Of a stretch of 64,000 nucleotides of DNA, positions 1 through 59,188 are shown one piece after another; the stretch's first letter is position 1; each line of letters begins with the position of its first letter. The stretch is from Patescibacteria group bacterium. GTDB taxonomy: Bacteria > Patescibacteriota > Minisyncoccia > Moranbacterales > UBA2206. The stretch lies in contig JAKLFF010000001.1 of assembly GCA_022711335.1 (NCBI GenBank), positions 405,754 to 469,753 of the forward strand, given 5' to 3'. Made by a program: the position numbers and the translations under genes. The notes beneath the pieces are model-generated. The model was not told the DNA's origin. It searched no databases and saw only the letters and a list, made by a program, of their open reading frames with translations.

Positions 1-367
1 AAATGTGATGGATGTATTGATTAACCTTATCACTAAAATAATCGCTCTTTATTCCTTCTCTCCTGTCTGAGGAGAGATGTCCCGAAGGGACAGAGAGGTG
101 GGAGCCAATATTCGGTTTAACTAATAAATGACCAGTCATTTTGAGATGTATGTATAGCGTTTTTCCGCCAGAAAGATCAACAAAAATATTTTTTCCGATT
201 CTCCTAGCTCCCAGAATCTTCAGGTTTTTGATTTCTTTTTTTAACTCTTTAATAGATTTTCCCTTAATCGCTTTTCCCCAATCACTCCAAAAATCAGTGA
301 TCGCGTCACCTTTGATTTTTTTGTTCAGATCATCGATTATGGTTTGGACTTCAGGTAGTTCCGGCAT
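1..367 (-). CDS. Formamidopyrimidine/endonuclease VIII-family DNA glycosylase (Fpg/Nei), N-terminal part only; gene runs off the window start
   Basis: Reverse-strand translation from the ATG at 367 gives MPELPEVQTIIDDL...GKNIFVDLSGGKTLYIHLKMTGHLL. The N-terminal PELPEV catalytic-proline motif and the H2TH-family fold pattern are classic Fpg/Nei. There is no stop before position 1. It contains an in-frame palindromic insert (~55-108). Confidence 0.6.
   Translation of the reverse strand, partial: MPELPEVQTIIDDLNKKIKGDAITDFWSDWGKAIKGKSIKELKKEIKNLKILGARRIGKNIFVDLSGGKTLYIHLKMTGHLLVKPNIGSHLSVPSGHLSSDRREGIKSDYFSDKVNQYIHHI
55..108. repeat. Intragenic palindromic element copy inside fpg
   Basis: TCTCCTGTCTGAGGAGAGATGTCCCGAAGGGACAGAGAGGTGGG has the same core as 27661-27712. 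It is translated in frame within fpg as ...GSHLSVPSGHLSSDRRE.... Confidence 0.55.
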
Positions 368-3278: not shown

Positions 3279-3316
3279 CAAAAAAGACGCGAGTATTTCG
3301 CGTCTCTACATTTTTT
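3279..3316 (-). terminator. Rho-independent terminator downstream of polA (possibly bidirectional)
   Basis: AGACGCGAGTATTTCGCGTCT hairpin, flanked by an A-run on the + strand (a U-run for the minus transcript) and TTTTTT on the other side. Confidence 0.45.
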
Positions 3317-3346
3317 GTTCCATGTTTTATGTTATATGCTATATGA

Positions 3347-6052
3347 CTAAATTTCTCCCCAATTATCCCCAATCTTCACGTCGACGAGTAGCGGAACTTT
3401 GAGCTTATAAACTGATTCCATAATTTCCTTAACTTTCTTTGCTACTTCTTCGGCAATTTCTTCCTTTACTTCAAGTATTATTTCGTCGTGAACCTGTAAT
3501 ATCATTCGTATATTCGTATTGGATTCGTAGTTCGTAGAGACTTCTATCATCGCCAGTTTCACAATGTCGGCTGCCAGACCCTGGATCGGCATATTAATTG
3601 CCATTCGCTCGGCGGCGTTTTGAACTTGGAAGTTAGGAGAATTTATTTCGTGGATATAGCGCCGGCGGCCGACTTCCGTTTCCACATATTCATGCTCCCT
3701 GGCAAATGCTTTCGTGTTTTTGATATAACTGGCCACTCCCTGAAACTTTTCCATATATTCATCGATGAATTTTTTGGCTTCTTCGCGATCGATTCCAGCG
3801 GACTGGGAAAATCCGAAGACACTCATGCCATAAATTATCCCGAAATTAAGAGCTTTCGCTTTTCTCCTCATAGCTTCCGTGACTTGGGACAAGGTAACCT
3901 TGTTTATTTCTGCCGCTGTTGCCCGATGGATATCTTCCCCTTTCCAAAAAAGATCAATGAGTTTTTTGTCTTCACTGACGTGAGCAACCACTCGAAGATC
4001 AATTTGAGAATAGTCAGCACTGACGAGTTTCCAGCCTTTTTCCGCTTCAAATGCTACACGAAGAAGTTGGCCCAAGTCTGTCCGAATAGGAATATTTTGG
4101 AGATTGGGTTCAGAAGAGCTTAGTCTCCCCGTGGCTGTAACAGCTTGATTATAGGTCGTGTGAATTCTTTGATCTTTATCAACAAGAAGCGGCAGCGCAT
4201 CAAGGTAGGTGGTTTTTAGTTTGAAAACTTCCCGGTATTCTTCTATTTTTTCAATAATTTTATGTTCCTGCTTGATTTTCTGCAGTTCCGTGGAAGCCGT
4301 GGAATAGTCGGTTTTCCCTTTTTTGATATCCACCGTGGGAATTTTCAGCTTTTCAAATAATATCGGTGCCAATTGCTTTGGAGAATTGATATTAAATTTT
4401 TCTCCTGCTAATTTGTAGATGCTTTTTTCCAAGTTTTCAATCCTTTTTCCAATTTTAGCTGAAATGCCTTTGAAAATAATCGTATTTAATTTTACTCCGA
4501 ATATTTCCATTTCAGAGAGAATCCTGATGAGCGGTGTTTCAATATTTTCAAAAACGTATTTCAAATTATTCTTTTTGTCCTGCGTTTCGCATATTTTTTC
4601 CATTTTTTCTTCCAATATATTTTTCAACTTGAAGATATAGCCGGCACTCTGGCAATATTTTTCCGCCATAACTTTCGGGGATTCTATTTCCAGCCCCAGC
4701 TGCCCTTTTTTTTCCAGAGTTTCTATTTCTTCACCTAGATTCTCTAAAACCAGCTTTTCCATTTCTATTTTGGCACCGGGATTAAGAACATAAGCCGCCA
4801 GCATTATATCAAATAATTTCCCCTCGATATTTATTCCATAGCGTTCCATTATTTCTATGTCCTTTTTCAAATCAAAACCGATTTTCATGATTTTTTTGTT
4901 CTGAAATATTCTTTTGATGGCTGCTTTATTTTTTTCACTATACTCAATATAATTCGCCCGGCCAGTCTTCCAACTGAAAGCCACGCCCCAAAGCTCCCGT
5001 TCTAAAATTTTCTCCCCGCTGGTTTTAAGTTGAATGGATATTTCTTCCTGTTTTTCAAGATTTTTAAAAAATTCATCTATATTTTTATCATCTACATATT
5101 CATACTTAAAGTCTCTTACCCCTTTTGTATTTTTATTCGTAGATTCGAATTTTATTCGTAGATTCGAATCGGTCATGGGTATTCTTTTTACCAGGCTATA
5201 GAAATTTAGGTCATTAAATAATCTCACTAATTTTTCCCGGTCAAATTCATGCGTCCTGGCTTTTTCAAGATCAATTTCCACCGGAACATTAGTTCGAATA
5301 GTGGCCAGTTTTTTGCTTTGAATGGCAATGCTTCGATCACGTTCCAGTTTGTCTTTCACCGCCCCTTTTACTTCATCCAGATTGGCATATACATTTTCCA
5401 AAGTTTCATATTTTTTAAGAAGTTCGATGGCGGTTTTTTCCCCAATACCTTTTACACCGGGGATATTGTCCGACGCATCTCCGCGAAGACCTTTAAAATC
5501 AATAAGTTGTTCCGGGGTAAGTGCATAGCGTTCTTTTATTTTTTCACTGTCATATAAAACAGCATCAGAAAGACCCCGACGCATAGTATAAACTTTAGTT
5601 TTCCCATTAACGAGCTGCAACGTATCTAAATCTCCGGTTACAATTATATTTTCGATTCCGCCAGCCGGCGGATTTTCTTCGACATATTTCACAACTGTTC
5701 CAATCACATCGTCCGCTTCAAACCCTTGCTTTTCCAAAATGGGAATATTCATTGCCCGCACCACCTCTTTGACGCGTCCAATCTGCGCATATAGTTCATC
5801 CGGAGCTTTCACTCTCGTTGCTTTGTATTCTTTGTATTCCTCATGCCGAAAAGTCGGTCCGGCCAGGTCGAAGGTAGCAATGATATAGTCCGGCTGGAAT
5901 TTGGCAATCACCGAAAGAATGGTCGAAGCAAACCCATAAACCGCATTGACCAGCTCACCGCTTTTTGTTGAAAGCGGCGGCAGGGCATGATAAGAACGAT
6001 GAATAATAGCATTGCCATCAATAAGAATCAATTTTGGAGATGATTTATTCAT
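3347..6052 (-). CDS. polA: DNA polymerase I
   Basis: 901 aa. The N-terminal 5'-3' exonuclease pattern (LILIDGNAIIHRSYHALPPL, ...GIGEKTA) is followed by the family-A polymerase motifs (RRKAKALNFGIIYG, QVHDEIILEV). Confidence 0.9.
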   Translation of the reverse strand: MNKSSPKLILIDGNAIIHRSYHALPPLSTKSGELVNAVYGFASTILSVIAKFQPDYIIATFDLAGPTFRHEEYKEYKATRVKAPDELYAQIGRVKEVVRAMNIPILEKQGFEADDVIGTVVKYVEENPPAGGIENIIVTGDLDTLQLVNGKTKVYTMRRGLSDAVLYDSEKIKERYALTPEQLIDFKGLRGDASDNIPGVKGIGEKTAIELLKKYETLENVYANLDEVKGAVKDKLERDRSIAIQSKKLATIRTNVPVEIDLEKARTHEFDREKLVRLFNDLNFYSLVKRIPMTDSNLRIKFESTNKNTKGVRDFKYEYVDDKNIDEFFKNLEKQEEISIQLKTSGEKILERELWGVAFSWKTGRANYIEYSEKNKAAIKRIFQNKKIMKIGFDLKKDIEIMERYGINIEGKLFDIMLAAYVLNPGAKIEMEKLVLENLGEEIETLEKKGQLGLEIESPKVMAEKYCQSAGYIFKLKNILEEKMEKICETQDKKNNLKYVFENIETPLIRILSEMEIFGVKLNTIIFKGISAKIGKRIENLEKSIYKLAGEKFNINSPKQLAPILFEKLKIPTVDIKKGKTDYSTASTELQKIKQEHKIIEKIEEYREVFKLKTTYLDALPLLVDKDQRIHTTYNQAVTATGRLSSSEPNLQNIPIRTDLGQLLRVAFEAEKGWKLVSADYSQIDLRVVAHVSEDKKLIDLFWKGEDIHRATAAEINKVTLSQVTEAMRRKAKALNFGIIYGMSVFGFSQSAGIDREEAKKFIDEYMEKFQGVASYIKNTKAFAREHEYVETEVGRRRYIHEINSPNFQVQNAAERMAINMPIQGLAADIVKLAMIEVSTNYESNTNIRMILQVHDEIILEVKEEIAEEVAKKVKEIMESVYKLKVPLLVDVKIGDNWGEI

Positions 6053-7224: not shown

Positions 7225-7698
7225 TTATTTAATGCTTATTTTTCTTTCCTTTTCGCCGATCCATTCGAATTTAATCCAAAGCGCGTCAGCCGGAATAATT
7301 TTTTTAATCCTATCCGCCCACTCAATAATTATAACATTTTTTTTATTCCCCGTAATTTCCTGCCAGCCAAGACTTAAAATGTCTTTAGAATTAACTCTGT
7401 ATGCATCGATGTGATAAATATTCTGGAACATGGAGCATGGGACATGGAGCATGCCTTTGTTTTTTGTTTTTTGTTTTTTGTTATGTGCTTTATGATATTG
7501 CTTCATCACTACAAATGTTGGGCTGGTATACGGCCCTTTAATCCTTAGCCCCTTTAAAAACCCTTGCGTAAAGGTAGTTTTCCCGCATCCTAAATCGCCT
7601 TCCAGGGCTATAATTTTCCCGTCTTTCAATTCCTTAGCTAGAATTTCGCCTAGTTTTTGGGTTTCTTTAGAATTTTTAGTGATAAATGTTTCTTGCAT
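7225..7698 (-). CDS. tsaE: tRNA threonylcarbamoyladenosine biosynthesis protein TsaE (YjeE ATPase family) carrying an in-frame repeat insertion
   Basis: P-loop LEGDLGCGKTTFTQG is typical of TsaE, and the C-terminal ...YHIDAYRV pattern is present. About 24 extra residues (KAHNKKQKTKNKGMLHVPCSMFQN) are encoded by a dispersed CATG-rich repeat at 7425-7500. Confidence 0.7.
   Translation of the reverse strand: MQETFITKNSKETQKLGEILAKELKDGKIIALEGDLGCGKTTFTQGFLKGLRIKGPYTSPTFVVMKQYHKAHNKKQKTKNKGMLHVPCSMFQNIYHIDAYRVNSKDILSLGWQEITGNKKNVIIIEWADRIKKIIPADALWIKFEWIGEKERKISIK
7425..7500. repeat. CATG-rich dispersed palindromic repeat copy (inside tsaE, in frame)
   Basis: CTGGAACATGGAGCATGGGACATGGAGCATGCC followed by (TTGTTTT)n and TTGTTATGTGCTTTATG. 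Related copies occur at 18336-18420, 19136-19226 and partly at 3318-3346. Confidence 0.6.
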
Positions 7699-7780: not shown

Positions 7781-7840
7781 TGGAGGGTTTACCCTGTGGA
7801 ATTCCGCCGTAGGCGGACGGCTACGCCGTATTCCACAGGG
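7781..7840. repeat. Near-perfect palindrome (potential stem-loop), intergenic
   Basis: TACCCTGTGGAATTCCGCCGTAGGCGGACGGCTACGCCGTATTCCACAGGGTA has 13-bp arms (CCCTGTGGAAT/ATTCCACAGGG) and a GC-rich loop that contains a second small hairpin. Confidence 0.5.
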
Positions 7841-7923
7841 TAAATTTGACACAAAAATCAATCCTTGCTATTTTACACAACTAACTTGCCGGTCCGAAGC
7901 TAAAAAATAACTCGGTCATTCTT

Positions 7924-9051: not shown

Positions 9052-9142
9052 ATATTGAATTTAGTATTTGTGGAATTTAGAATAAAAATGCTACTAATAT
9101 ATTCCACATTCAAGATTCCCATTCAAAATTTGAAATTCTCAA

Positions 9143-9170
9143 GACCCTTCGGTCTTTTTTATTTTTTTAT
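9143..9170 (+). terminator. Rho-independent terminator after the DHH gene
   Basis: AGACCCTTCGGTCT hairpin followed by TTTTTTATTTTTTT. Confidence 0.5.
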
Positions 9171-12100: not shown

Positions 12101-12226
12101 ATCACTTCTGAACTTCAAGATAAAGCCGTAACTGATGGAATGCTGACTATGACACAAGACGGGATTTTACGGGTTTTGGAAGGAGAAACAACGCTGGAAG
12201 AAGTGGAGAGGGTGACGGATTTATAG
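9191..12226 (+). CDS. Tandem-fused double GspE/PilB-type secretion ATPase (type II secretion / type IV pilus assembly ATPase family)
   Basis: 1011 aa with two complete ATPase units. Each unit has a Walker A (GPTGSGKTTTLYAII and GPTGSGKTTTLYSIL), an Asp/His box (DPDIILVGEIRDDETA...LSSLHTN and NPDVMMIGEIRDDETA...FSTLHTN), and a tetracysteine motif (CDCK...GCPKCN and CDCK...GCKKCN). Confidence 0.8.
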   Translation: MIKIVKKISSEEKSEKEIQTQKILSKMRRESEEEQASVFAASLNLPYIDTNLVPIATDAIKTLTEEESKKYNLAIIQKMARIVTAVSTDPFENKTQDFIKKLTRENGWQIKVFVVSRTNLERIWEKYKKIVFVDYLDQMAVNLSGEELENFEEELKELITLKQRISELSTTQIIDIIMAGGHKLGASDIHLEPQEKEVRLRYRIDGVLQDIAFFPLNVFKSITSRIKMMGGMKINVRDIAQDGTFKIKIKSKKDEKKIDTRVSIIPGNFGESIVIRLLNPESVNVKLETLGLRGLAYEQIQKQIIAPNGMILNTGPTGSGKTTTLYAIINKLNEPDKKIVTIEDPIEYELPGISQSQVEKSRGYTFASGLRAIVRQDPDIILVGEIRDDETADIAINSALTGHLVLSSLHTNNAIGSIPRLIELGTKPSLISPSINAIIGQRLVRKLCDCKEAYEPAKESIESLKKILSIISPKSKIDVPKNIFKLYRAKGCPKCNSLGYKGRIGIFEVLTINPEIEKLVMDLASETELTLAALESGMITMLQDGILKALEGITSIDEVKRVTGEGEFLEDIYEKLMAATLGRSILIDSKSYKSAKDNIGNFKKFQKIISKAKTTEIAKILFAAASILGVGDIHIEPQAKSVKIRFRIDGILQDVASISLTEYPAFLGEIKLLSGVKTEVRQGVVDSRFTIKFDEDIKDAREPATDVRVSIILGGYGETVVLRLLFKTNLEYDLKKLGIRQQNLDKIMEEISKPNGVILNTGPTGSGKTTTLYSILKHLNKPEAKIITVEDPIEYQMEGILQTPVNDKEGYTFATALRQLLRQNPDVMMIGEIRDDETAKIAMQAALTGHLVFSTLHTNSAAGAVARLANMGISPQDIAMACDAFIAQRLIRRLCDCKKKVKPTVEEKATIEKVLKTISQKSGVTVPKIGDIYKPGGCKKCNHIGYKGRMTVSEVFKITKNIQELVTRGAITSELQDKAVTDGMLTMTQDGILRVLEGETTLEEVERVTDL

Positions 12227-12350
12227 TTGAATTTAGAATTGTGAATTTAGTATTTTGAATGGGAATATAGAATTTTGAATACTAGTGAATTCTAAATTCT
12301 TTATCCTTAACTCCCATTCTAAATTCTAAATACTAAATTCAAAATTCCAT
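12227..12350. repeat. AATTCTAAAT-family intergenic inverted-repeat element
   Basis: GAATTTAGAATT / GAATTTAGTATTT / GAATGGGAAT units are followed by their inverse complements (ATTCTAAATTC, CCCATTCTAAATTCTAAATACTAAATTC). The same motif family recurs at 9058-9090, 27270-27440, 35310-35345, 39695-39720 and 40210-40340, always just downstream of genes. Confidence 0.55.
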
Positions 12351-12782
12351 TAATAAAAGGCAGGTTCCTTTCTGTTTCTGTTTTGTTAACTATTAAAGGT
12401 AATCAGTGGTTCTGACAATAATCTGCAGGCAAGATCCCAAAGCAAGGCCCCGGGGGAAGAAACAGTGTCGAGGAACGGCACAGCCGAAACCAAACCGCCC
12501 ATGTCTGGACAAAAAAGTTTCCTAATTGAAGACAAAAGATAGAAGCCTCCAATTGCCTACAGTTTACTGCTAATCATCTAAAAAACGCGCAAATGCGATG
12601 TTTTTGATGACTTTAGAGCGTAGCATAACTTCCTTTTTTTGTCAAACGGGTATATAATAACACTAGGATTAATTTACAATGATCAATTATCAATTTACAT
12701 TGAATTAACAATTGATTAATTTTCAAAATTGAGTCATTGAAAATTGATTGAAAATTGTAAATTGAAAATTGAAAATTTACTG

Positions 12783-16816: not shown

Positions 16817-18160
16817 TTAATACAGATATCCCCACATCTGAAGCTTATCTGACTCATGAAGCCACTTTTCCCCGATATCTGTCCGGTAATACATATTTTG
16901 CAAGATAATATTGTTCACTCTGAAATAGGCCTGCTTTCGGGCGCCTTCAACAGTTATGCCTGACCCCGTCACAACGAGAACATATCCCGAGTCTCCAGCC
17001 ACTGAAAATGAGCCGTTGGTTTTTTTGACATCCCCCAGATGAATCCCGTCCAGGCTCGGCTTTTTGAAAAGAATGGAAAGATCTTTATGCAGCGCAGTCT
17101 CCGAAGGATCTTCAAAAGGAAATGGAGGAACAACGACGACAACTCCCACTTGAAATCCTTTTTTCACCTTAAGATCAACTTTTTTCTTATTGGCTATATC
17201 GAAAAGAAATTCCCCCCAGCTGCTTAAAACTCCTTCCGACTGGATGCTGATGGTCGGGTAGCCAAAACGGGAAGTAAATTCCAAAGGATAAACTCCCCTG
17301 GCATTGGCAATGCAATTTATATCAATATACCCGACATAGCCCGACTCAGCCAGCGCATCTTTCATCTTGAAAAGGGTGTCATTAAATATTTTATTGGGCG
17401 GAGACCAGTACATCAAAGTCCCCATTTCCCCGGTATAGGGGCCGATGTCTCCCGGAAACAGCTTTTTGTGCTCAAAATTGATATTAACAGGATAGACAAA
17501 GTCTTCTCCGTTGAAAAAAGCTCCAGCTGCCACTTCTACGCCTACGGCCATTTTTTGAAGCTGAAATTTTTTTATCTTTTTCGCCCAGGCTTTTTTATTT
17601 TGTTCCAAAATTTCAATCAGATCTTTTCCGTCGTCTTCATGAGCCATAAAAAGTACTTTCTGATCGGACATAAGAAATCCGGAAGGCTTGAAAACATACC
17701 GGCCGGGATTATTTCTAACAAATTCTATCGCTTCATCAAAACTTTCAAAATCCCAATGCGGAAGAACAGAAAGGCCGAATTTTTTCATTTCATTTTGCCC
17801 AAACTCCCGATCTTCTTCTAATTTGTCAGTGTATTTGCTTCCGCCGACAACCGGTTTCCCCTTGGCTCTAAGCTCATCAGCTTCTTTGCCATAGCCGATA
17901 TCATCAAATACGATAATATCCGCCCAATCAACAAATTCTTTCCAATTTTTTACCTTTTCCAAAAGTCCGTCGTAAACATCCTGATCTTGCTCCCTCTCAA
18001 AAGATACTTTTACCTCATGGCCTTCTTTTTTAATCTGCCAGGCTAGATCGCCATTCAAACTTTCCGGGGAAACAAACAGGAATTTCTTCGGACTTTCGGT
18101 CGGCTTCATTTTATTTCCGTTTGACATAATTTTTTTTGAAACTGAATAAATTTTAAACAA
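16817..18160 (-). CDS. ATP-grasp enzyme, phosphoribosylamine-glycine ligase (PurD)-like
   Basis: ATP-grasp pattern with ...GPYTGEMGT... and CIANARGVYPLEFTSRFGYP, resembling the PurD ET..RFGDPE region. The start may be an internal Met (MSNGNK at 18127). Confidence 0.5.
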   Translation of the reverse strand: MFKIYSVSKKIMSNGNKMKPTESPKKFLFVSPESLNGDLAWQIKKEGHEVKVSFEREQDQDVYDGLLEKVKNWKEFVDWADIIVFDDIGYGKEADELRAKGKPVVGGSKYTDKLEEDREFGQNEMKKFGLSVLPHWDFESFDEAIEFVRNNPGRYVFKPSGFLMSDQKVLFMAHEDDGKDLIEILEQNKKAWAKKIKKFQLQKMAVGVEVAAGAFFNGEDFVYPVNINFEHKKLFPGDIGPYTGEMGTLMYWSPPNKIFNDTLFKMKDALAESGYVGYIDINCIANARGVYPLEFTSRFGYPTISIQSEGVLSSWGEFLFDIANKKKVDLKVKKGFQVGVVVVVPPFPFEDPSETALHKDLSILFKKPSLDGIHLGDVKKTNGSFSVAGDSGYVLVVTGSGITVEGARKQAYFRVNNIILQNMYYRTDIGEKWLHESDKLQMWGYLY

Positions 18161-18335
18161 AACAAAAATATCAATTTCTTCTTAAAAGATATCCAAGAAT
18201 GTTTTTTAAAATTAAAAAGTTTTTTATTTCTTTTTCATAATAATGCAAAAAAAAATATTGTCAATGTTTTTTTAATATTTTTAATCGAAAAGTTTTTTCT
18301 TGAAAATAAATTATTAAAATGCTACTGTTGTCATA

Positions 18336-18420
18336 TAACGTATGACATGAAACATATAGCAAAATGCCGGAAAATAATTTTTTTTGTTATGTGCTATATG
18401 TTTCATGTTCCATAATTTTA
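18336..18420. repeat. CATG-rich dispersed palindromic repeat copy (5' of yebC)
   Basis: 16-bp inverted arms CATGAAACATATAGCA / TGCTATATGTTTCATG around a spacer that contains TTTTTTTTGTTATGTGCTATATG. Confidence 0.55.
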
Positions 18421-19133
18421 TGTCAGGCCACTCGCACTTCGCCGGAATAAAACACAAAAAAGGGATAAATGATGCCAAGCGCGCTAAGATTTTTACAAAA
18501 TTCGCAAAACCTATCGCCATCGCAGCGCAAGAAGGCGGAGGAAATCCCGATACCAATTTCAAATTGAGAATGGCGATTGATAAAGCGCGCCAGTTTAATA
18601 TGCCCAAAGAAAATATCGAAAGAGCCATCAAGCGCGGCACAGGAGAACTGAAAGGAGAAACGCTTCAAGAAATTGTTTATGAGGCCAAGGGGCCGGGAAA
18701 TGTTTTAATGCTTATTAGCGCGACAACTGATAATCGCAACCGCACTGTTTCAGAAATTAAAAGCATTCTTGCCAAGCTGGGAGGAAAAATGGGCGAAGCC
18801 GGATCAAGTATGTGGAATTTCGAACAAGCAGGAATCATTTTAGCCGATCCCGAAACACAAGCTCTGGATGAATTGGAACTTATGGCTATCGACTCCGGCG
18901 CCAAAGATATAAAAACAGAAGAAAATATTGTATCTGTTTTTACCGAAATGAGAGATCTTCAAAAAGTGAAAAATAAACTGGAAGAAAAGAAAGTCAAAGT
19001 TTTGGAGGCCAGCCTTGTTTTTATCCCTAAAAGCACCATCAAGCTGGATGAGAATGCCAAAGCTAGCTATGAAAAACTTCTGGAAGCGCTTGATGATCAA
19101 GATGATGTAAATGAAATTTATGACAACCTTTAA
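18420..19133 (+). CDS. yebC: YebC/PmpR-family probable transcriptional regulatory protein
   Basis: MSGHSHFAGIKHKKGINDAKRAKIFTKFAKPIAIAAQEGGGNPDTNFKLRMAIDKARQFNMPKENIERAIKRG is a textbook YebC N-terminus. The start was moved to the ATG at 18420. Confidence 0.8.
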   Translation: MSGHSHFAGIKHKKGINDAKRAKIFTKFAKPIAIAAQEGGGNPDTNFKLRMAIDKARQFNMPKENIERAIKRGTGELKGETLQEIVYEAKGPGNVLMLISATTDNRNRTVSEIKSILAKLGGKMGEAGSSMWNFEQAGIILADPETQALDELELMAIDSGAKDIKTEENIVSVFTEMRDLQKVKNKLEEKKVKVLEASLVFIPKSTIKLDENAKASYEKLLEALDDQDDVNEIYDNL

Positions 19134-19135
19134 CC

Positions 19136-19226
19136 ATAGAACATGAAACATGAAGCATGTAACAAAAATGAATACGGATTTATCCAAAAATGGTTTGTCC
19201 CATGCTCCATGTTCTATGTTACGTGT
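19136..19226. repeat. CATG-rich dispersed palindromic repeat copy (yebC-ruvC spacer, overlapping the ruvC start)
   Basis: CATAGAACATGAAACATGAAGCATG ... CCCATGCTCCATGTTCTATG with inverted arms CATAGAACATG/CATGTTCTATG. Confidence 0.55.
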
Positions 19227-19716
19227 TTTAGGAATTGACCCCGGGACGGCTACCACCGGCTGGGCTATAATAGAAACAAGCAAAAGCCGGGGCATCAAAC
19301 CTCTTAGTTATGGCGTCATCAGCACGAAAAAAACCGGCTCTGAAGAAGAAAGGCTTTTTGAAATATCCAGAGATCTTCAAAAAATCATAGAAAAATACAA
19401 GCCTGATGAAGCTGCAATTGAAAAGATATTCTTTTTCAAAAATCAAAAAACCATTATTCAAGTTTCCCAGTCGAGAGGCGCCGTTCTCTTGACGCTTAGA
19501 CAAAAAAGTATTAGAATATCGAGTTATACTCCGCTTCAAATCAAGCAGGCGCTCACAGGATATGGAAAGGCAGAAAAAAAACAAATGCAAGAAATGACCA
19601 AAAGCATTTTGAGCTTAAAATCCATTCCCAAACCAGACGATGCTGCTGATGCCATTGCCGCAGCGATTTGCCATATAAACAGCCGCATTTATAATAATTT
19701 AAATTCACCCCGTTGA
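19216..19716 (+). CDS. ruvC: Crossover junction endodeoxyribonuclease RuvC
   Basis: MLRVLGIDPGTATTGWAIIE... and ...DAADAIAAAICH give the characteristic RuvC N- and C-terminal catalytic-Asp regions. Confidence 0.8.
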   Translation: MLRVLGIDPGTATTGWAIIETSKSRGIKPLSYGVISTKKTGSEEERLFEISRDLQKIIEKYKPDEAAIEKIFFFKNQKTIIQVSQSRGAVLLTLRQKSIRISSYTPLQIKQALTGYGKAEKKQMQEMTKSILSLKSIPKPDDAADAIAAAICHINSRIYNNLNSPR

Positions 19717-30676: not shown

Positions 30677-30724
30677 ATTTTTTGTGCTTAAGCAATTCTA
30701 TTCTATCAAATCCAGGGAAAAGAA

Positions 30725-30815
30725 AAAAGGCGAGCGGGTCGTGGCGTGGTAGCCTATCCCGGATGCTCGCCCTTAGCGGTTTCGGTTTTTTTAGGGAGAC
30801 CGAAAACTCCCGCCG
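30725..30815. repeat. Structured ~85-bp element, copy 1 (direct repeat of 31737-31827)
   Basis: GGCGAGCGGGTCGTGGCGTGGTAGCCTATCCCGGATGCTCGCC (stem GGCGAGC/GCTCGCC) + TTAGCGGTTTCGGTTTTTTTAGGGAGACCGAAAACTCCC (second stem GGGAG/CTCCC). Nearly identical to the copy 1 kb away. Confidence 0.6.
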
Positions 30816-30841
30816 GCTATTCAGGGGATGCCGGTCACTCC

Positions 30842-31093
30842 TCAAAAAATTTGTTTTTTTCGGCCGGTCCACCAGCCGACTTCCTCCTCCCGCACCTTCA
30901 AGATGCAGGAGATCTCGAAGTAGTCCTTGGGCTCTCCAAAGCCCTCAGACTCTTCGACTGTGTCTAAAAACAACTGTTCCTCGCCGGTGGCGAGGAACTT
31001 CTTCTCTAATTCCCTGACCACGTCGCCGTGGCCAGAGTCGAACAACAGGCCGTGTCGCAGCCCGTTGTCCTTGATTTCAAATTTCTTTCCCAT
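30842..31093 (-). CDS. Hypothetical small protein (GC-rich islet)
   Basis: 83 aa from the ATG at 31093, with a strong RBS (AGAAAGGAGAAAAATATG). The codon usage is visibly GC-richer than in flanking genes. Confidence 0.4.
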   Translation of the reverse strand: MGKKFEIKDNGLRHGLLFDSGHGDVVRELEKKFLATGEEQLFLDTVEESEGFGEPKDYFEISCILKVREEEVGWWTGRKKQIF

Positions 31094-31251
31094 ATTTTTC
31101 TCCTTTCTATGGGAAATTAACTTCACTTCTGAACCCGCAAAGCCAATCTTTACGGGTTCGGAATGAAGGGCAAAACTTTTGTCGTGGTAGACTCAAGTCT
31201 TGCCATTCAAGTGGTTCCCTTTTTATATACCGCTGGGACAGCGGTCGGAAA

Positions 31252-31590
31252 TCAGAGTTTTTCAAAAATCACTCTGATTTCCTTAATCCGGAACCATCCT
31301 GCGTGGCGAAAGCCAAGCAGTTTGGTTCCGTCGACCGGGTCCATGACCCGGTCATTCTTGCAAAAGAGCACGGGCTTGTCAGGCCCGGCTATCTGCAAAA
31401 ACTGCTGCTGCAGCGGAAGTGGGGCCACGATGGCCACCACGTCCGCCGCAGCGATCTCCTCGGCCAATTCATGCGCCGAAGAGATCGTCCGATTGACCTG
31501 GTGAACTTCCACCAGGCCAAAAATTCTTTTCAAGTCGGCCGATTGCTCGGCCGACATCTCATGCCTGGAAAACCACAAGACTTTCGTCAT
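31252..31590 (-). CDS. Hypothetical small protein (GC-rich islet)
   Basis: 112 aa from the ATG at 31590 (RBS AGGAAAGGAGAATCTCATG): MTKVLWFSRHEMSAEQSADLKRIFG.... No motif recognised. Confidence 0.4.
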   Translation of the reverse strand: MTKVLWFSRHEMSAEQSADLKRIFGLVEVHQVNRTISSAHELAEEIAAADVVAIVAPLPLQQQFLQIAGPDKPVLFCKNDRVMDPVDGTKLLGFRHAGWFRIKEIRVIFEKL

Positions 31591-31736
31591 GAGATTCTCC
31601 TTTCCTGCTGAACATTTCCCTTGCGCCGTTTCGCTCCCAACCACATCCTGATCAGCATTCAGGACTGGGCCAAGCGCAAAGAAAATTTTTTCACTTCCGA
31701 TTCTGCGAAGACAATCCTCACAGACTCGGAATGAAA

Positions 31737-31827
31737 GGCGAGCGGGTTGTGGCGTGGTAGCCTATCCCGGGTGCTCGCCTATTTTAGGTTTCGGTTTTTT
31801 TAGGGAGACCGAAAACTCCCTTGAGAG
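31737..31827. repeat. Structured ~85-bp element, copy 2
   Basis: GGCGAGCGGGTTGTGGCGTGGTAGCCTATCCCGGGTGCTCGCC + TATTTTAGGTTTCGGTTTTTTTAGGGAGACCGAAAACTCCC. A truncated third partial copy (CGGAATGAAGGGC) is at ~31140-31165. Confidence 0.6.
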
Positions 31828-32067
31828 CTACCACATCCGGTTGTCACACCGGGGGCAGCCCTCGTTCTTGACGTAGACATACTCGTCTACGCCAAATTCC
31901 TGCCCGCACCGCGGGCAGGAGAAAAAATTTTCATAGACTGCCAGATGGCAGTCTATGCATTCCCTCGCCTTCCCGGCGAGGGAAAAAATCTGGTGTGGAC
32001 AATCGTCCACACCAGATAAAATTCCTTCACTGCTGCAAATTTCGCAGCAGACGAATTTCTTTGCCAT
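31828..32067 (-). CDS. Zinc-ribbon (multi-CxxC) small protein
   Basis: 79 aa from the ATG at 32067 (perfect RBS GAAAGGAGGAACGCC-ATG): MAKKFVCCEICSSEG...CPHQ...CIDCH...CPRCGQEF...CPRCDNRMW, with four CxxC pairs. GC-rich. Confidence 0.5.
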   Translation of the reverse strand: MAKKFVCCEICSSEGILSGVDDCPHQIFSLAGKARECIDCHLAVYENFFSCPRCGQEFGVDEYVYVKNEGCPRCDNRMW

Positions 32068-32326
32068 GGCGTTCCTCCTTTCATGGCAAATGTTAACCTT
32101 TCCCCAGCCAGTGTAACTCCCGACCAGTCCGACACAACGTCGGACCCGGGCCATAGCTGGTTTGTCCAGCACCAACTACTCCTCACTAACAAAAGTTTGT
32201 TTAATAAAGAAAAGTTGGTGCTGGATTTATTCGCATGTGCCCATTCGTTAGGGCTATTCGCATACTTCAACCGAGAGAAAATAAAAGCTAATTGAAATAT
32301 GTAATAATTTATGCTAAGCTATTGCT

Positions 32327-34374: not shown

Positions 34375-35309
34375 GATTTTGCTTTGAGATAATTAAAAAC
34401 GCTCCTCACAGCAATGGCACCTTCGGCGGCCGCGGTAATGACTTGGCGGAATTTGTTTGATCCGTCGGTTATGTCTCCGGCCGCAAAGATGCCAGGAACC
34501 GAAGTGGAGCCGTCTGATTTTATTTTTATATACCCGTCTTTGTCGCTTTTAATATCCAAGTCATCCGCATAATTTATATATGGATCCGATCCGGCTTCAA
34601 TAAAGAGTCCGCTTATTTCAAGCAAACTGCTATTTTTATGTGGATTATCCAGTTCAACCCTTTCCAGTTTTTCCTGGCCGGATATTTTCACTACGTTGGT
34701 GTTATAAATAACTTCTATTTTCTCATTCTTCTTGATTGAATCAGCCCAAAAAGGCTCGCAGCGAAGCTCGCTTTTACGATAAATTATATAAACTTTCTTA
34801 CAGATATCAGCCAGATATAATGCCGCGCCTGCCGCGCTGTTGGATCCGCCAATCACTCCAACAGTCTTGTTTTTATAGAAAAAACCGTCGCAAGTGGCGC
34901 AATAGGAAACGCCTTTTCCCGCAAATTCTTTTTCTCCTAAAATGTCCAGCTTTCTCCTCTTCATGCCAGTGGCTAGTAACACAGTTTTAGTTTTTAAGGC
35001 TTCGTTATTTTCTAGTTCTGCAATAAATCTCCCTTCCTCTTCTTTTTTTATATTTTTAACCAAGCCTGGGATTATTTCTGCGCCGTACTTTTTAGCATGT
35101 TCTCCTAGTTTTTTTCCAAGCTCGGCTCCAGTCAGGTTTTCAATGCCTGGATAATTGTCGATTAGATGAGCTTCGGAGATCTGTCCGCCCAAAATCTGCC
35201 CGATAATAGCATGTTTTATCCCGTAGCGGGAAGCATAAATAGAAGCAGAAAGCCCCGCCGGACCAGAACCTATTATAATTAAATCATAAGATTTATCCAT
35301 AGCTTTCAT
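34371..35309 (-). CDS. trxB: Thioredoxin-disulfide reductase
   Basis: FAD site DLIIIGSGPAGLSASIYASR, redox-active CATCDG, NAD(P) site VGVIGGSNSAAGAALYL, and C-terminal IFAAGDITDG. Confidence 0.85.
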   Translation of the reverse strand: MKAMDKSYDLIIIGSGPAGLSASIYASRYGIKHAIIGQILGGQISEAHLIDNYPGIENLTGAELGKKLGEHAKKYGAEIIPGLVKNIKKEEEGRFIAELENNEALKTKTVLLATGMKRRKLDILGEKEFAGKGVSYCATCDGFFYKNKTVGVIGGSNSAAGAALYLADICKKVYIIYRKSELRCEPFWADSIKKNEKIEVIYNTNVVKISGQEKLERVELDNPHKNSSLLEISGLFIEAGSDPYINYADDLDIKSDKDGYIKIKSDGSTSVPGIFAAGDITDGSNKFRQVITAAAEGAIAVRSVFNYLKAKS

Positions 35310-35338
35310 TCAAAATTCCCAATTCTAAATTCAAAATT

Positions 35339-36496
35339 CTAATTTTTAATTGGCATCACGATATAGGTAAAATCATGTAAAACTTCGCCGGTTTGTTCAT
35401 TTATTTCCTTTAAAGCGATTGGCGTTGATTCACTGTTCATAAGAAAAGCCACTTTGGAAGTTGAGATGCTATTAATTCCATCTAAAAGATATTTTGAATT
35501 TAAAATTACTTCTTGAGATGGTCCAGAAACGTCAAATTTGAGCTCTGTTGAGTTTTCTCCAGTTTCCGCACTGCTAGCGCCTATAAAAATTTTCTTTACT
35601 CCAGAGTCAATTTTAATCGAAATCTCTCCTGATTTTCCCGAAGCAAAAATATTAGCCATTTTTACCGCGTTTTGAAACACGCTTTTTTCCAAAACTACCC
35701 TGGTTTTATAATCTTTTGGCATTATATGCTTATATTCAGGATATTTTCCATTAATCAACCTTGAAACAATTTTAGTCTCTTCTATTTCAAAAAAAATTTG
35801 CCCGGATTCAATCGTTATTTTCACATCACATTCTTCATTATTAGAAATAATTCTCATTACTTCATTTAATGTTCCAAATGGAATAATAATACTGTCTTTT
35901 TTGTTTATATAAGCCTCAAACACCTCTTTATTTATATTTTCCTTGTTTATACTAATTCTACTTTCAGAAAGACGAAAACTATCAGTTGAAGCAAAAAATA
36001 TCTCTTTTTGGCTTAAAATAAGGTTTATTCCAGTAAGCTCTTGTCTGGCTTCATTTTGAGCCACAGACACCATTTCCTTAGATAAGATATTTTTTAGATC
36101 AATACTATTAATATTTAATAGATATTCACTGCTTTTTTTAGGAATTAATGGAAAATCATCAGCTGATACCCCTTTTATAATTGCCTTAAAAGAGCCACTT
36201 TTTATTTTTATTCCCTGTTCAACACTTTCTATTAAAACATTATCTCCTTGAGGAAGATTATTAGAAAAACTACTAATTATTTTCGCTGGAATAGTTATTT
36301 TACCTTCTTTTTCCACTTTAACTCCCACTTTTACCTGAGCTCCCATTTCTAAATTTGTCGCGGAAAACACTAAAAACCCTTTTTTTGCTTCAAATAAAAT
36401 ATTATTTAGTATAGGCAAGGTGTTTTGCTTAGAAACAATCCTTTCTGTGTTGTATATCGCTTTTTTAAAGTTATCTTGAGTACAAATTAATTTCAT
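35339..36496 (-). CDS. dnaN: DNA polymerase III beta subunit (sliding clamp)
   Basis: 385 aa; MKLICTQDNFKKAIYNTERIVSKQNTLPILNNILFEA, three-domain length, positioned immediately downstream of dnaA. Confidence 0.85.
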   Translation of the reverse strand: MKLICTQDNFKKAIYNTERIVSKQNTLPILNNILFEAKKGFLVFSATNLEMGAQVKVGVKVEKEGKITIPAKIISSFSNNLPQGDNVLIESVEQGIKIKSGSFKAIIKGVSADDFPLIPKKSSEYLLNINSIDLKNILSKEMVSVAQNEARQELTGINLILSQKEIFFASTDSFRLSESRISINKENINKEVFEAYINKKDSIIIPFGTLNEVMRIISNNEECDVKITIESGQIFFEIEETKIVSRLINGKYPEYKHIMPKDYKTRVVLEKSVFQNAVKMANIFASGKSGEISIKIDSGVKKIFIGASSAETGENSTELKFDVSGPSQEVILNSKYLLDGINSISTSKVAFLMNSESTPIALKEINEQTGEVLHDFTYIVMPIKN

Positions 36497-38560: not shown

Positions 38561-38562
38561 CT

Positions 38563-39721: not shown

Positions 39722-40210
39722 ATGGAAAAGAATAATGAAGATCTTGAAATGGAAAAAAAAATAAAAAGAATTATTGAAGAGATGATTTCAAAAATGGGGT
39801 TCAAAGGAAGCGTGGAAATAATAAAGAAGGAAGAAGGTGAAAAAAAATCATATGTTTGCAATGTAAAAACACAAGAATCCAATTTCTTAATCGGACAATA
39901 TGGAATCAATTTGCAGTCGCTGCAGCACATCGCTCGGATGCTGGTCAGAAAAGAAATTTCGGAGAGAATTAATTTTATTATTGACATTAATTCTTATCGG
40001 ATGGATAAAAATGATTCAATTGTAAAATTGGCTAAAAATTTGGCTGAGGAAGCTCTTCAGGAAAAGAAAGCCGTAGTATTGCGTCCTATGGGCCCCTATG
40101 AACGCAGAATTGTCCATCTTGAACTGGCCAAAGACGATAGGATTAAAACAGAAAGCATAGGAGAGGGTGAAGACAGAAGAGTTGTAATCAAGCCAATAGA
40201 CCTTATTTAA
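39722..40210 (+). CDS. Jag/KhpB-like RNA-binding protein (KH + R3H domains)
   Basis: C-terminal R3H: VLRPMGPYERRIVHLELAKDDRIKTESIGEGEDRRVVIKP. The KH-like middle region is present. Confidence 0.7.
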   Translation: MEKNNEDLEMEKKIKRIIEEMISKMGFKGSVEIIKKEEGEKKSYVCNVKTQESNFLIGQYGINLQSLQHIARMLVRKEISERINFIIDINSYRMDKNDSIVKLAKNLAEEALQEKKAVVLRPMGPYERRIVHLELAKDDRIKTESIGEGEDRRVVIKPIDLI

Positions 40211-40340
40211 AAGAATTTAGAATTGGGAATTTCGAATTTAGAATGGGAATATGGAGCTTAGATCTTGAAGGAAATTAAAACCCAGTTTATTTTTAGTAGT
40301 TTTATTCTAAATTCTAAATACTAAATTCAAAATTCTATTT
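40210..40340. repeat. AATTCTAAAT-family intergenic inverted-repeat element
   Basis: AAGAATTTAGAATTGGGAATTTCGAATTTAGAATGGGAATATGGAG ... TTTTATTCTAAATTCTAAATACTAAATTCAAAATTC. Confidence 0.5.
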
Positions 40341-58693: not shown

Positions 58694-59086
58694 CTATTTT
58701 AAATCCAGTATTTTTGAAATTTCTTCTATTTTTTGGCTGTTTAATTCTTTTTTCTTTAGCGGTCTAGGCTTATTTTTGGCTGTTTTTCTGACTGGCACGT
58801 CATTTTCTGCAGCCCTTTTCCATATATACATACGAGGGCGGAAAATAAAAGAAATTGACGATCCGATAAAAGTAATCAGAGAGACGTTGTAAGGACGATA
58901 AAAAGCTAAGGCTCCGAAAATAATTCCTACGATTACGCAAGAAATGACAAAGGCGGACGTATCGAGCAGATTAAAAAGAACAAGAAGGACTACTCCTCCG
59001 AGCGCCAGCCAGCCCAGCTGCTTGGCAGTGAGCGGACCTACGATCTTGTCTTCGATGTCTATAAATTGTGGAACATTGAACAGCAT
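58694..59086 (-). CDS. PrgI-family (VirB3-like) small membrane protein
   Basis: 130 aa: FIDIEDKIVGPLTAKQLGWLALGGVVLLVLFNLL + a second TM, matching the PrgI/VirB3-like pattern (a charged motif, then 2 TM). It sits directly upstream of the VirB4-related ORFs. Confidence 0.55.
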   Translation of the reverse strand: MLFNVPQFIDIEDKIVGPLTAKQLGWLALGGVVLLVLFNLLDTSAFVISCVIVGIIFGALAFYRPYNVSLITFIGSSISFIFRPRMYIWKRAAENDVPVRKTAKNKPRPLKKKELNSQKIEEISKILDLK

Positions 59087-59188
59087 TTGTCATATAGCAT
59101 ATATCATACAACATATAACAAAAATTATAGTTGTTCTGATATGCGCTTTTTTAATTTTACCATACTTTAAATCCAAAGTCCCCTTTTT

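Follow-up and report, generated by a model that had tools for sequence, protein, structure and literature searches.

What is the extra segment that stands in frame in the tsaE gene of this genome, and how did repeat-like DNA come to be there? The genomes of Patescibacteria are very small and are generally held to be poor in repetitive DNA. In order to answer this question, we analysed the window, that is, the whole 64-kb stretch of DNA around the gene, together with about 20 kb of each relative.

An in-frame extra segment in TsaE

The tsaE locus has the following features.

7225..7698, minus strand: tsaE (157 aa; Pfam TsaE, PF02367, E 4.2e-33)
7420..7491, minus strand: in-frame extra TsaE segment, residues 70-93, KAHNKKQKTKNKGMLHVPCSMFQN; 24 residues against 5 in B. 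subtilis 5NP9
7426..7455, unstranded: CATG heptad arm GAACATG GAGCATG GGACATG GAGCATG CC (plus-strand reading), a period-7 hit of which 7426-7443 matches copy D
7460..7480, unstranded: (TTTTTTG)x3, or (CAAAAAA)x3 on the tsaE coding strand, three perfect tandem heptads
7474..7494, unstranded: TTTTTTGTTATGTGCTTTATG, the arm end common to tsaE and the yebC element
7492..7512, minus strand: hairpin H1, codons VVMKQYH immediately 5' of the tsaE insert, 7/9 pairs in the window

When TsaE was compared with its B. subtilis counterpart (5NP9) by phmmer, residues 6-69 and 94-155 of the query aligned, and residues 70-93 therefore occupy the spot of 5 residues in 5NP9. The AlphaFold model of TsaE agrees with solved TsaE structures at TM 0.70-0.75. 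Its core is confidently modelled, and the insert appears as the low-confidence tip (pLDDT 51-54) of an extended beta-hairpin between strands 65-74 and 88-98, so that the loop position proposed for it in the original prediction is borne out in the model. The sequence is no assembly artefact: contigs that ENA and JGI data yielded in separate assemblies show 100% identity over 11-17 kb, and 22 contigs carry the exact TsaE protein. The insert is probably translated into protein, and from the reading frame a peptide such as GMLHVPCSMFQNIYHIDAYR would be expected from the segment.

A dispersed family with a seven-nucleotide period

Related elements were found at further places in the window.

3306..3346, unstranded: copy A, one arm adjoining the polA stop (3347-3349), beside a GC-rich terminator-like hairpin (3285-3305)
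18328..18413, unstranded: copy C, full hairpin ending 7 nt before the yebC ATG (18420); -33.2 kcal/mol, z -6.1
19134..19226, unstranded: copy D, hairpin that adjoins the yebC stop (19131-19133) and covers the ruvC ATG (19216); z -4.0 (plus strand) and -6.1 (minus strand)
59084..59147, unstranded: copy E, hairpin with the ATG (59086-59084, minus) of a PrgI-family gene in its first heptad
9052..9142, unstranded: GAAT-type heptad element after the stop of a DHH-family gene; same class, other family
12229..12350, unstranded: GAAT-type heptad hairpin starting 3 nt past the stop at 12226; z -6.2
12744..12782, unstranded: heptad tract of TTGAAAA-type units at the ruvB 5' end
35292..35353, unstranded: GAAT-type heptad tract over the dnaN stop (35339) and the start (35309) of the next gene
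40209..40340, unstranded: GAAT-type heptad element from the stop (40208-40210) of an R3H/KH-domain (Jag-like) gene to 3 nt before the ATG at 40343

The tsaE segment belongs to this dispersed family. Positions 7426-7443 (GAACATGGAGCATGGGAC) match 19197-19214 in reverse complement at 18/18, positions 7474-7494 are identical at 20/21 to 18380-18400 in the element 5' of yebC, and the arms of the segment and of the intergenic copies align in heptad register. Within the window, CATGNNNCATGNNNCATG occurs 3 times against 0.00 expected, TGTTATGTGCTWTATG occurs 4 times with at most 2 mismatches against 0.11 expected, and a triple CAT or ATG at period 7 is confined to the five family loci. The claim that the extra TsaE residues are coded by a member of a dispersed repeat family is thus upheld, and every string and coordinate quoted for it was recovered. 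The four copies originally listed are present, while a fifth, copy E, had been overlooked. Among the family copies, hairpin folding is limited to C, D and E (z -4 to -6). The tsaE copy lacks self-complementarity (z of -1.0 and -0.1 for its fold), and since its sequence has decayed, the earlier term "palindromic" is wrong for its present state.

Domain matches confirm the identity of yebC, and the Pfam match of RuvC begins at 19216. As had been predicted, this ruvC start codon sits inside a repeat copy, in the right arm of D, and the peptide HAPCSM recurs there, coded at 19201-19218 in frame with the ATG. The gene starting at 35309 is a pyridine nucleotide-disulphide oxidoreductase, thioredoxin-reductase-like. 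The idea that the intergenic copies serve as promoter cassettes did not hold up: a simple sigma-70 scan, run with a terminator scan over 18100-19350, placed no site inside the yebC or ruvC elements and gave counts no higher than shuffled sequence. The sole forward-strand promoter candidate, 18212-18241, lies upstream of copy C, and the element would consequently fall in the 5' UTR. At gathering score Rfam gave no match in the whole window, with sub-threshold noise at 30.6-32.35 kb and nothing at 12.34-12.76 kb; no tRNA genes were found in the window.

The common denominator of these elements is a period of seven. The window holds 10 period-7 tracts (398 nt), against 1, 4, 0 and 5 tracts of periods 5, 6, 8 and 9, and its unit types are CATRnnn and GAATnnn. 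The CATG-type was originally presented as a second, separate family. It is indeed a dispersed family, but the CATG-type and GAAT-type families are one class of heptad-periodic inverted arrays, whose period of 7 had gone unnoticed. Moranbacteria-like loci contain 171 period-7 tracts in 786 kb, whereas other taxa contain 26 in 1051 kb, a roughly 9-fold difference in density. Moranbacteria-type (Patescibacteria) genomes are rich in short arrays of 7-nt units. Opposed array pairs often make a long hairpin around an A-rich loop, and most arrays lie in transcribed spacers, which fill the interval between one gene's stop codon and the next gene's start codon. In the element at 12229..12350 the left arm and loop are hypervariable between strains, which differ at 19 positions within 12211-12311 but at 2 across the adjoining 9.6 kb. 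Viral contigs scanned for CATG heptads returned at least 120 matches, which were plain tandem arrays of many unit types at 30-71% G+C; we set these aside as generic heptamer repeats without a link to the window family.

Half of the heptad tracts found lie in frame within conserved genes, at recurrent sites. Tracts similar to that of tsaE recur at fixed sites in fpg and polA, which resemble the tsaE site in combining an in-frame repeat with a fold-compatible position, and many of the genic tracts are one-armed tandem arrays. The units seen in relatives include AATTTCC, AAAATCA and GATCCAC. Small GC-rich palindromes were also seen nested in heptad inserts (peptides LPRRQAG, PTGRQ, NPPAGG) and in polA.

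The TsaE site across relatives

Among the best 120 TsaE homologues (54-69% identity, the same-species cluster P0001 excepted), 118 carry 18-43 residues at the insert site. The same site measures 9-10 residues in insert-free orthologues and has a modal length of 12-13 residues in other phyla. The few homologues without an insert include the closest TsaE relative, P0062 (77% identity). The tsaE copy is neither a recent nor a genome-specific insertion. Conservation of the segment in unrelated lineages had been named as an outcome that would speak against the original prediction. The alignment of orthologues gave a divided answer: the segment is conserved across related lineages and is absent from most unrelated phyla, so that the objection applies by half.

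While the site is occupied across the clade, its content differs. The CATG-type peptide recurs in many homologues (e.g., MLHVPCSMFHD, MLHASCSMFHD), and the peptide classes are translations of differing heptad units, namely CATG, AATTTCC/AAATTCA, CGTGGAA/GATCCAC and ACAAC/GTTGT. In other genomes, the second allele often seen at the TsaE site is the GAAT-type unit. An AATTTCC allele from one of these genomes agrees with the GAAT-family spacers of the window at 28-29/32, and the tract at 35292..35353 matches the TsaE insert of relative L119 at 29/32. Three relatives whose PolA proteins are 85-87% identical (L133, L157, L115) carry three unrelated insert classes. At least three perfect tandem heptads occur in 19/65 distinct TsaE inserts, in runs of 3-5 units, whereas other periods give 0-1. 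No length variant of the tsaE tract was seen among six strain-level contigs.

In four relatives (L091, L092, L095, L159) the insert shares its sequence flavour with intergenic copies on the same contig. On average, inserts share 3.46 10-mers per 10 kb with their own flanks and 2.07 with the flanks of other genomes. This excess is modest and uneven, several genomes showing none within 20 kb, and we did not retain the notion that an insert always matches the repeats of its own genome. At the DNA level, identity between the window insert and the L087 insert is 82%, compared with 68-73% for the flanking tsaE DNA, a hint that points to constraint or recent exchange more than to neutral decay. Only same-class comparisons were used in this way; global-alignment identities between different classes are meaningless because of alignment gaps and were discarded.

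Folding is also better in the insert regions than in the coding DNA beside them: the regions have a mean z of -2.4, and z lies below -2 in 55% of them against 5-9% of controls. Arms pair best with their own partner, at -18.6 kcal/mol against -10.4 kcal/mol with the arms of other genomes. The strand antisense to tsaE folds better in 58/63 inserts, and a sense-strand mRNA hairpin was accordingly rejected as a general feature; the bias follows from base composition, the stop-free sense strand being A/C-rich (A 47%, G 12%). Of the 9 pairs of hairpin H1, the 65 orthologues that bear an insert form 6.4 on average; the mean is 4.5 for 10 orthologues with a short insert or none and 4.2 for other phyla, and shifted registers give 1.7-4.2.

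Origin of the segment

Taken together, we consider it an evenly poised proposition that the TsaE insert derives from a heptanucleotide-repeat inverted array, of which it would be an old and translated copy that has decayed in part. The data are best read as showing slippage-prone heptameric arrays in hairpin form, which surface loops can accommodate and which DNA-level processes turn over. Replication slippage favouring 7-nt units would create the arrays and keep them uniform, template switching or arm-to-arm conversion would keep both arms complementary, and recombination could swap sequence among arrays and among lineages; turnover of this kind would require no dedicated transposase. A genic array would survive only where the protein tolerates it and its orientation and frame are free of stops. 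This requirement would make the A/C-rich strand the sense strand and the peptide rich in K/N/Q/H/T/S. In TsaE, the permissive place would be the beta-hairpin tip that separates the SPTF and HxDxYR motifs; it would have been filled from an early stage of the clade onwards while its content turned over, and the insert itself is presumably selectively neutral. Slippage alone does not explain the near-identical AATTTCC allele and junctions in unrelated genomes, nor the replacement of whole arrays at 85-87% PolA identity. These two features call for alleles to be exchanged laterally or reinserted at specific sites, both of which are candidate processes.

A different origin would be by non-autonomous transposable elements, MITE-like or RPE-like, with the enzyme coded elsewhere and a preference for hairpin targets, so that the TsaE loop was hit repeatedly. 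The long inverted arms, the dispersed copies with exact 18-20-nt matches, the differing families at one site in close relatives and the small hairpin H1 at the insertion point would all suit such elements. So would the nested GC-rich palindromes, of which the one in L159 has a counterpart in an intergenic hairpin of its own contig, and the RPEs of Rickettsia act similarly (PMC10969869). We nevertheless judge this origin unlikely, while taking it seriously. When empty sites (YKK|NI in L147, L152 and L008) were compared with a filled one (YKK-EFPISNFQFPNKSKIQ-NI in L157), no target-site duplication was evident beyond 1-2 A residues. No transposase or IS was found among the ORFs of the 64-kb window, and none of them matched Y1_Tnp (RAYT, Y1 HUH transposase), although a mobilising enzyme may be encoded elsewhere in the genome. 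Neither the length nor the ends of the copies are fixed, the genic tracts are in many cases one-armed tandem arrays rather than elements bounded by terminal inverted repeats, and the perfect heptad runs suggest expansion in place. A function in nucleic acid, for which the TsaE copy would have been kept, seems more doubtful still. The hairpins would then be cis-elements such as an mRNA stabiliser or processing site, a device for stop-start coupled translation, an antisense RNA or binding arrays for a protein that reads 7 nt. Elements do span from stop to start with the downstream ATG in the stem base (D/ruvC, E/PrgI-family gene and 40209-40340; in L087, polA-fpg and an element upstream of ruvA). 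Arm complementarity is kept while the unit sequence changes, the tsaE antisense strand folds better, and the first and seventh codons of H1 appear to covary (CTT/AAG, GTG/CAC, TTG/CAA). However, several orthologues lack the insert, the window tsaE copy no longer folds, and the antisense bias is expected anyway from sense-strand composition. In addition, copy D folds better on the strand opposite its genes, the elements have neither an Rfam family nor a promoter-like site, and one spacer array shows 19 differences between strains that are nearly identical.

Could the protein rather than the DNA be under selection? A lysine-rich TsaE loop that aids binding of tRNA or of TsaD/TsaB, its repeat-like DNA being incidental, would fit the filling of the site in nearly all clade members, the uniformly K/N/Q/S/T/H-rich peptides and the fair conservation of the CATG-type peptide (MLH[AV][SP]CSMFH). 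We find this very improbable, since the peptide classes are mutually unrelated (HASCSMFH, FPISKSQFPNK, HDPRSTIH, LSVVSGKLSV), and what they have in common is the 7-nt period and inverted symmetry of their DNA. Moreover, the closest relative lacks the insert, the segment is modelled at low confidence, and tracts of the same type occur in fpg, polA, other genes and spacers. Contingency loci, in which adding or dropping a single 7-nt unit would move the frame and so toggle tsaE, fpg or polA, are the least credible of these explanations. The unit is not a multiple of three, perfect runs reach several units, and heptamer tracts do occur in DNA-repair genes; but the exact TsaE stands on contigs from many samples, the strain-level contigs agree in length and the window tract is mostly imperfect. 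All orthologues recovered are in frame, in a gene-based search that would miss frameshifted ones. We also mention, as a long shot, that Moranbacteria may possess a process that rewrites heptad hairpin cassettes at a few fixed, hairpin-marked codon positions of housekeeping genes, and that would be site-directed, homing-like or template-directed rather than passive slippage. Its sites may be the TsaE beta-hairpin, fpg after HLKMTGHL and the 5'-exonuclease domain of polA, its source may be the cell's own spacer arrays or other lineages, and its driver may be some nuclease, reverse transcriptase or repair pathway.

Whichever process is at work, a class of hairpin repeats with a 7-nt period fills operon spacers and stands in frame in essential or repair genes (tsaE, fpg, polA), in the same loops clade-wide. 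In the searchable literature we found no description of such a class in Moranbacteria genes or spacers. It is a second, independent case beside Rickettsia of repeat DNA turned protein sequence, it offers hundreds of natural alleles for comparison, and the reason why bacterial repeats favour heptamers can be studied on it concretely. In annotation, gene callers and alignments will be led astray both by start codons within arms (ruvC, the PrgI-family gene, ruvB) and by "insertions" in marker proteins that are specific to the clade.

Comparison with known repeats

Of the traits of a MITE, terminal inverted repeats are present in C, D, E and the GAAT-type elements and are lacking in the tsaE copy and copy A, and the TsaE site shows no target-site duplication. 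RPEs are palindromes, about 100-150 bp long and repeated within a reduced genome, which occur between genes and in frame in unrelated housekeeping genes, at fold-compatible positions and with orthologous sites common to related species (PMC10969869). The elements described here are alike in being palindromic repeats in frame in conserved genes at fold-compatible sites (tsaE, fpg, polA). In contrast to RPE families, which have a defined consensus and a conserved peptide, they consist of 7-nt units that vary between and within genomes, have no fixed ends or consensus, and differ in allele at one site in close relatives. The RPE host belongs to another phylum, and we set the two apart by description, not by sequence.

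With heptameric SSRs and STRRs the arrays share 7-nt tandem units that are over-represented relative to other unit lengths. Cyanobacterial STRRs, from the work of Mazel et al. in 1990, are reportedly tandem 7-nt repeats. Heptameric repeats are over-represented in bacteria, which has been ascribed to polymerase slippage; they are mostly intergenic, and inverted pairs can form stem-loops (PMC4692102). Related Xanthomonas carry heptameric repeats of very different sequence and length between the same genes, sometimes as inverted pairs (PMC4692102). Those heptamers (STRR, Nostoc GGGGA(T/C)T, Xanthomonas GGGAATC) are G-rich and reported as intergenic, whereas the units here, in a Patescibacteria host, are A/T-rich, the arrays are usually long hairpins adjoining stop or start codons, and half of the tracts are genic. 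None of the published units CCCCAGT, TTGGTCA, CAACAGT, GGGAATC and GGGGAYT occurs here.

REP, BIME and REPIN elements likewise are short dispersed palindromes in transcribed operon spacers, and REP/BIME elements are thought to affect mRNA stability. REPs are 20-40 nt long, G+C-rich and extragenic, with a GTAG or CGTC head and a co-occurring RAYT gene (PMC3733652, PMC3116915). Unlike REP/REPIN, the arms here are A/T-rich without a GTAG/CGTC head, and copies lie inside genes. A phase-variable contingency locus would be marked by frame-shifting polymorphism in repeat number, whereas the six strain-level contigs are uniform in the length of the tsaE tract. The Nostoc SDRs of Elhai et al. (2008) are reportedly tiny hairpin repeats that insert into heptamer arrays, other repeats and occasionally conserved genes; as such, they resemble the GC-rich palindromes nested in heptad inserts and polA, with a different host phylum and different sequences. 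In summary, the heptad class is a distinct variant among the known kinds of repeat, which include RPEs, STRRs and other heptameric repeats.

Results

Structure of tsaE and its insert

The window has a G+C content of 38% and comes from a genome of Moranbacteria type within the Patescibacteria; the nearest named TsaE homologues and loci belong to 'Candidatus Moranbacteria/Moraniibacteriota'. The origin region dnaA-dnaN / rnpA-yidC-jag lies inside it, near 38.4 kb (35339-40210; dnaN and dnaA on the minus strand, rnpA, yidC and jag on the plus strand). The gene under study is:

7225..7698, minus strand: tsaE, 157 aa (Pfam TsaE, E 4e-33)

An identical protein is found on 22 contigs of independent ENA, JGI and Logan assemblies. 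Three of these contigs match the window at 100% across 11-17 kb, which excludes an assembly artefact. B. subtilis TsaE (5NP9) aligns to residues 6-69 and 94-155, and residues 70-93 (KAHNKKQKTKNKGMLHVPCSMFQN, nt 7420-7491) stand where the solved 5NP9 has five residues. In the AlphaFold model (mean pLDDT 86.6; TM 0.70-0.75 to solved TsaE structures), strands 65-74 and 88-98 form an extended hairpin, and the insert lies at its tip, modelled with low confidence (pLDDT 51-54). The divergent spacer between tsaE and a DHH-family gene (7785-7847) carries a GC-rich branched inverted repeat, single-copy in the window, with a 15-18-bp outer stem and two inner hairpins (-42 kcal/mol, z -6.7).

A repeat family with a seven-nucleotide period

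The original prediction placed the insert in a CATG-rich palindromic family with intergenic copies. Every sequence string quoted in it was found in the window, and the kinship was confirmed: 7426-7443 matches the reverse complement of 19197-19214, in the yebC-ruvC element, at 18 of 18 positions, and 7474-7494 matches 18380-18400, in the element 5' of yebC, at 20 of 21. The four loci it named are all present, and copy E brings the count to five:

Copy A, 3306-3346: single arm abutting the polA stop codon
Copy B, inside tsaE: the insert
Copy C, 18328-18413: end 7 nt upstream of the yebC ATG
Copy D, 19134-19226: from the yebC stop codon across the ruvC ATG
Copy E, 59084-59147: ATG of a PrgI-family gene within its first heptad

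In the window, the CATG-heptad pattern occurs three times against 0.00 expected, and the TGTTATGTGCTWTATG pattern four times against 0.11. When aligned, the arms of all copies share one heptad register: four or five successive CAT(R)nnn units, with AACAAAAA at the end. Long hairpins are predicted for copies C, D and E (fold z -4 to -6), but the copy inside tsaE, although described as palindromic, has no hairpin fold (z -1.0 and -0.1). The ruvC frame is open through all of copy D, back to an ATG at 19150 (19150-19215), and gene callers may therefore add a 22-residue repeat-encoded N-terminal extension to RuvC; the ruvB start is likewise ambiguous, with 352 or 339 aa called in different assemblies. 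Copy E lies inside a region (56006-59086) whose TraG/VirB4-like ATPase gene and PrgI-family gene suggest a cluster for type IV secretion or a conjugation-like process.

What defines the family is its 7-nt period. Within the window, triple CAT or ATG spaced at 7 is confined to the five CATG-type loci, and a general autocorrelation scan returned ten period-7 tracts (398 nt), against 1, 4, 0 and 5 for periods 5, 6, 8 and 9. The remaining period-7 tracts are of a second, GAAT type:

9052-9142: GAAT-type tract
12229-12350: GAAT-type tract
12744-12782: GAAT-type tract
35292-35353: GAAT-type tract
40209-40340: GAAT-type tract

Their architecture is that of the CATG type, two inverted heptad arrays spanning the interval between a stop codon and the next start codon, in some cases the start codon too. 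In 75 non-redundant Moranbacteria-like loci there are 171 period-7 tracts over 786 kb, and 7-69 tracts for each of the other periods (5, 6, 8-11); 71 loci from other taxa hold 26 over 1051 kb, and no such tract occurs in the 189 kb of ten non-Patescibacteria control loci. Unit sequences vary among genomes and inside single genomes. The GAAT-type element at 12229-12350 varies in its left arm and loop (12211-12311): strain-level contigs differ there at 19 positions (2 gaps), with only two further differences in the adjoining 9.6 kb, a pattern suggestive of very rapid change or of a short tract of conversion or recombination.

Several further features were seen outside the arrays. The stretch between the GAAT-type hairpin at 12229-12350 and ruvB (12350-12740) is non-coding and G+C-richer, with no Rfam match even at E 0.1. 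About 1.6 kb at 30680-32300 holds no convincing ORF and no Rfam family at threshold, and contains two direct-repeat pairs, 30726/31734 (82%) and 31113/31681 (73%). A 300-nt direct repeat (88%; 47487-47786 and 50460-50759) lies in two large ORFs without a Pfam match, probably paralogous genes.

The TsaE site in other genomes

Among the best 120 TsaE homologues (54-69% identity, except the same-species cluster P0001), 118 have 18-43 residues from SPTF to (Y)HxDxYR; of the other two, one has 9 residues and one gave no measurable length. The 90 loci with DNA give the same picture of a long site. Beyond the clade, 12-13 residues is the most common length, and the tail of longer loops is mostly other Patescibacteria. 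Loops of 23-37 residues also occur in a few unrelated lineages (L066 and L043, Ktedonobacter and another Chloroflexi locus) and in other Patescibacteria-like loci (L020, L031, L022); lengthening in unrelated lineages indicates that the site is permissive in general.

The insert peptides can be sorted into classes, and each class translates its own kind of heptad array:

HITCNIKHKTKKxKMLHASCSMFHD: units CATG
KKEFPISKSQFPNKSKIQN: units AATTTCC / AAATTCA
RVTHNVERV...IHDPRSTIH: units CGTGGAA / GATCCAC
KLTTNNKxLTTKKKKKLSVVSGKLSV: units ACAAC / GTTGT

Small GC-rich palindromes (peptides LPRRQAG, PTGRQ, PPAGG) are nested in some of them. Over 32 positions, the AATTTCC allele of another genome agrees with GAAT-family spacers of the window at 28-29; the two intergenic families of the window are thus the two commonest TsaE-site alleles elsewhere. 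Of 65 distinct inserts, 19 hold at least three perfect tandem heptads; for other periods the number is 0-1. Folding is stronger in insert regions (mean z -2.4, with 55% below -2) than in the flanking coding DNA (5-9% below -2), and a left arm pairs with its own right arm at -18.6 kcal/mol, against -10.4 with arms of other genomes. Few inserts are more decayed than the window's own tsaE copy (z -0.7), in which (CAAAAAA)3 has taken the place of part of the left arm. In 58 of 63 inserts the better fold was that of the strand antisense to tsaE. With 47% A and 12% G, the sense strand has the composition expected from avoiding stop codons and hydrophobic residues, and this composition enriches the antisense strand for G-U pairs; the bias was therefore not taken as a sign of antisense RNA.

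The seven codons preceding the insert (x-[VI]-[IM]-K-x-Y-x; window 7492-7512, minus strand; orthologues L007-L168) tend to form a 9-bp hairpin, H1. It averages 6.4 pairs where an insert is present, 4.5 where the insert is short or missing and 4.2 in other phyla, against 1.7-4.2 in shifted registers. Its first and seventh codons apparently covary (CTT/AAG, GTG/CAC, TTG/CAA), and the variant I-K-N is almost confined to the AATTTCC allele. H1 may mark a hairpin-prone target, or conversion tracts may extend into the conserved strand.

In-frame tracts in other genes

In the Moranbacteria-like loci, a sample enriched for tsaE by design, 85 of the 171 period-7 tracts lie deep within long ORFs, and genic tracts are found repeatedly at the same positions:

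fpg, after HLKMTGHL: in 21 Moranbacteria-like loci, a variable stretch of 14-51 residues, encoded mostly by heptads
polA, 5'-exonuclease domain, after FEADDVIGT: recurrent site
polA, second site: recurrent site
FemAB-family gene and Wzy-like membrane proteins: recurrent sites

The window's fpg (2-367, minus strand, cut at the window edge) has an in-frame hairpin-rich segment, PNIGSHLSVPSGHLSSDRREGIKS, at 50-112, directly after HLKMTGHLLVK. Its polA (minus strand) has, after FEADDVIGT, an in-frame GC-rich palindrome, CCGCCAGCCGGCGG, encoding NPPAGG (5658-5671, within 5655-5674); other genomes carry heptad tracts or longer inserts there, and NPPAGG or PPAGG is also found within their TsaE inserts.

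Turnover of alleles

Relatedness was judged from a PolA tree (about 430 aligned residues). The nearest sampled relative of the window, L089 (78%), has a degraded CATG-type insert, which fits vertical descent at that depth. Beyond it the distribution is patchy. L133, L157 and L115 have three unrelated alleles despite PolA sequences 85-87% identical; L094 and L138 (82%) also differ, as do the tree neighbours L087 (CATG), L148 (AATTTCC) and L147 (none). P0062 (TsaE 77% identical), the TsaE closest to the window's outside its own species, has no insert, and in P0011 (TsaE 67% identical), where the genes stand in the same order, the site carries the AATTTCC allele. Between the window and L087, insert DNA is 82% identical and flanking tsaE DNA 68-73%. 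Some inserts resemble their own contigs: the CACGAAA/CATGTAA mixture of the L091 insert turns up three more times within 20 kb, L092 and L095 similarly share the flavour of their inserts with spacer copies, and in L159 insert and spacer copy have the GGTTCGACC hairpin in common. Over 27 genomes, inserts share on average 3.46 10-mers per 10 kb with their own flanks and 2.07 with those of other genomes, a modest excess. Judged from these comparisons, the pattern appears to be one of turnover rather than simple inheritance.

Discussion

Overall, the original observation was confirmed and extended, and its interpretation was supported in part, above all for family membership with the intergenic copies. 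The suggested promoter role was not supported: no promoter-like site was found inside the yebC or ruvC elements, and the candidate yebC promoter (18212-18241) lies upstream of copy C, which would therefore be in the 5' UTR. Canonical terminators of this genome are short GC-rich hairpins with a trailing T run (3285-3305; about 9143-9170); they stand apart, next to heptad elements and not within them. The window gave no match to Rfam families.

How might such arrays arise and spread? In the joint reading that we adopt, with an even chance of its being right, the arrays would be generated by slippage, arm symmetry would be maintained by template switching, as known quasi-palindrome mutagenesis suggests, recombination would exchange sequence among arrays and among lineages, and genic arrays would be tolerated only in permissive loops and in a stop-free orientation. 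This reading does not account for two observations, that nearly identical alleles with identical junctions recur in distant genomes and that whole arrays are replaced between close relatives; because of them a transposon-like or site-directed mechanism is kept as a less likely explanation. No transposase is encoded in the window.

We found no description of these heptad elements for Patescibacteria in the searchable literature. The heptameric repeats of Xanthomonas and Nostoc belong to an over-represented class of bacterial repeat; related species have them between the same genes, with widely differing sequence and length, inverted pairs form now and then, and the repeats have been ascribed to polymerase slippage favoured at a 7-nt unit (PMC4692102). 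The spacer arrays are a good fit to these published heptamers (PMC4692102), and the in-frame behaviour of heptad arrays parallels that of Rickettsia palindromic elements (PMC10969869); the reading adopted above follows from these likenesses.
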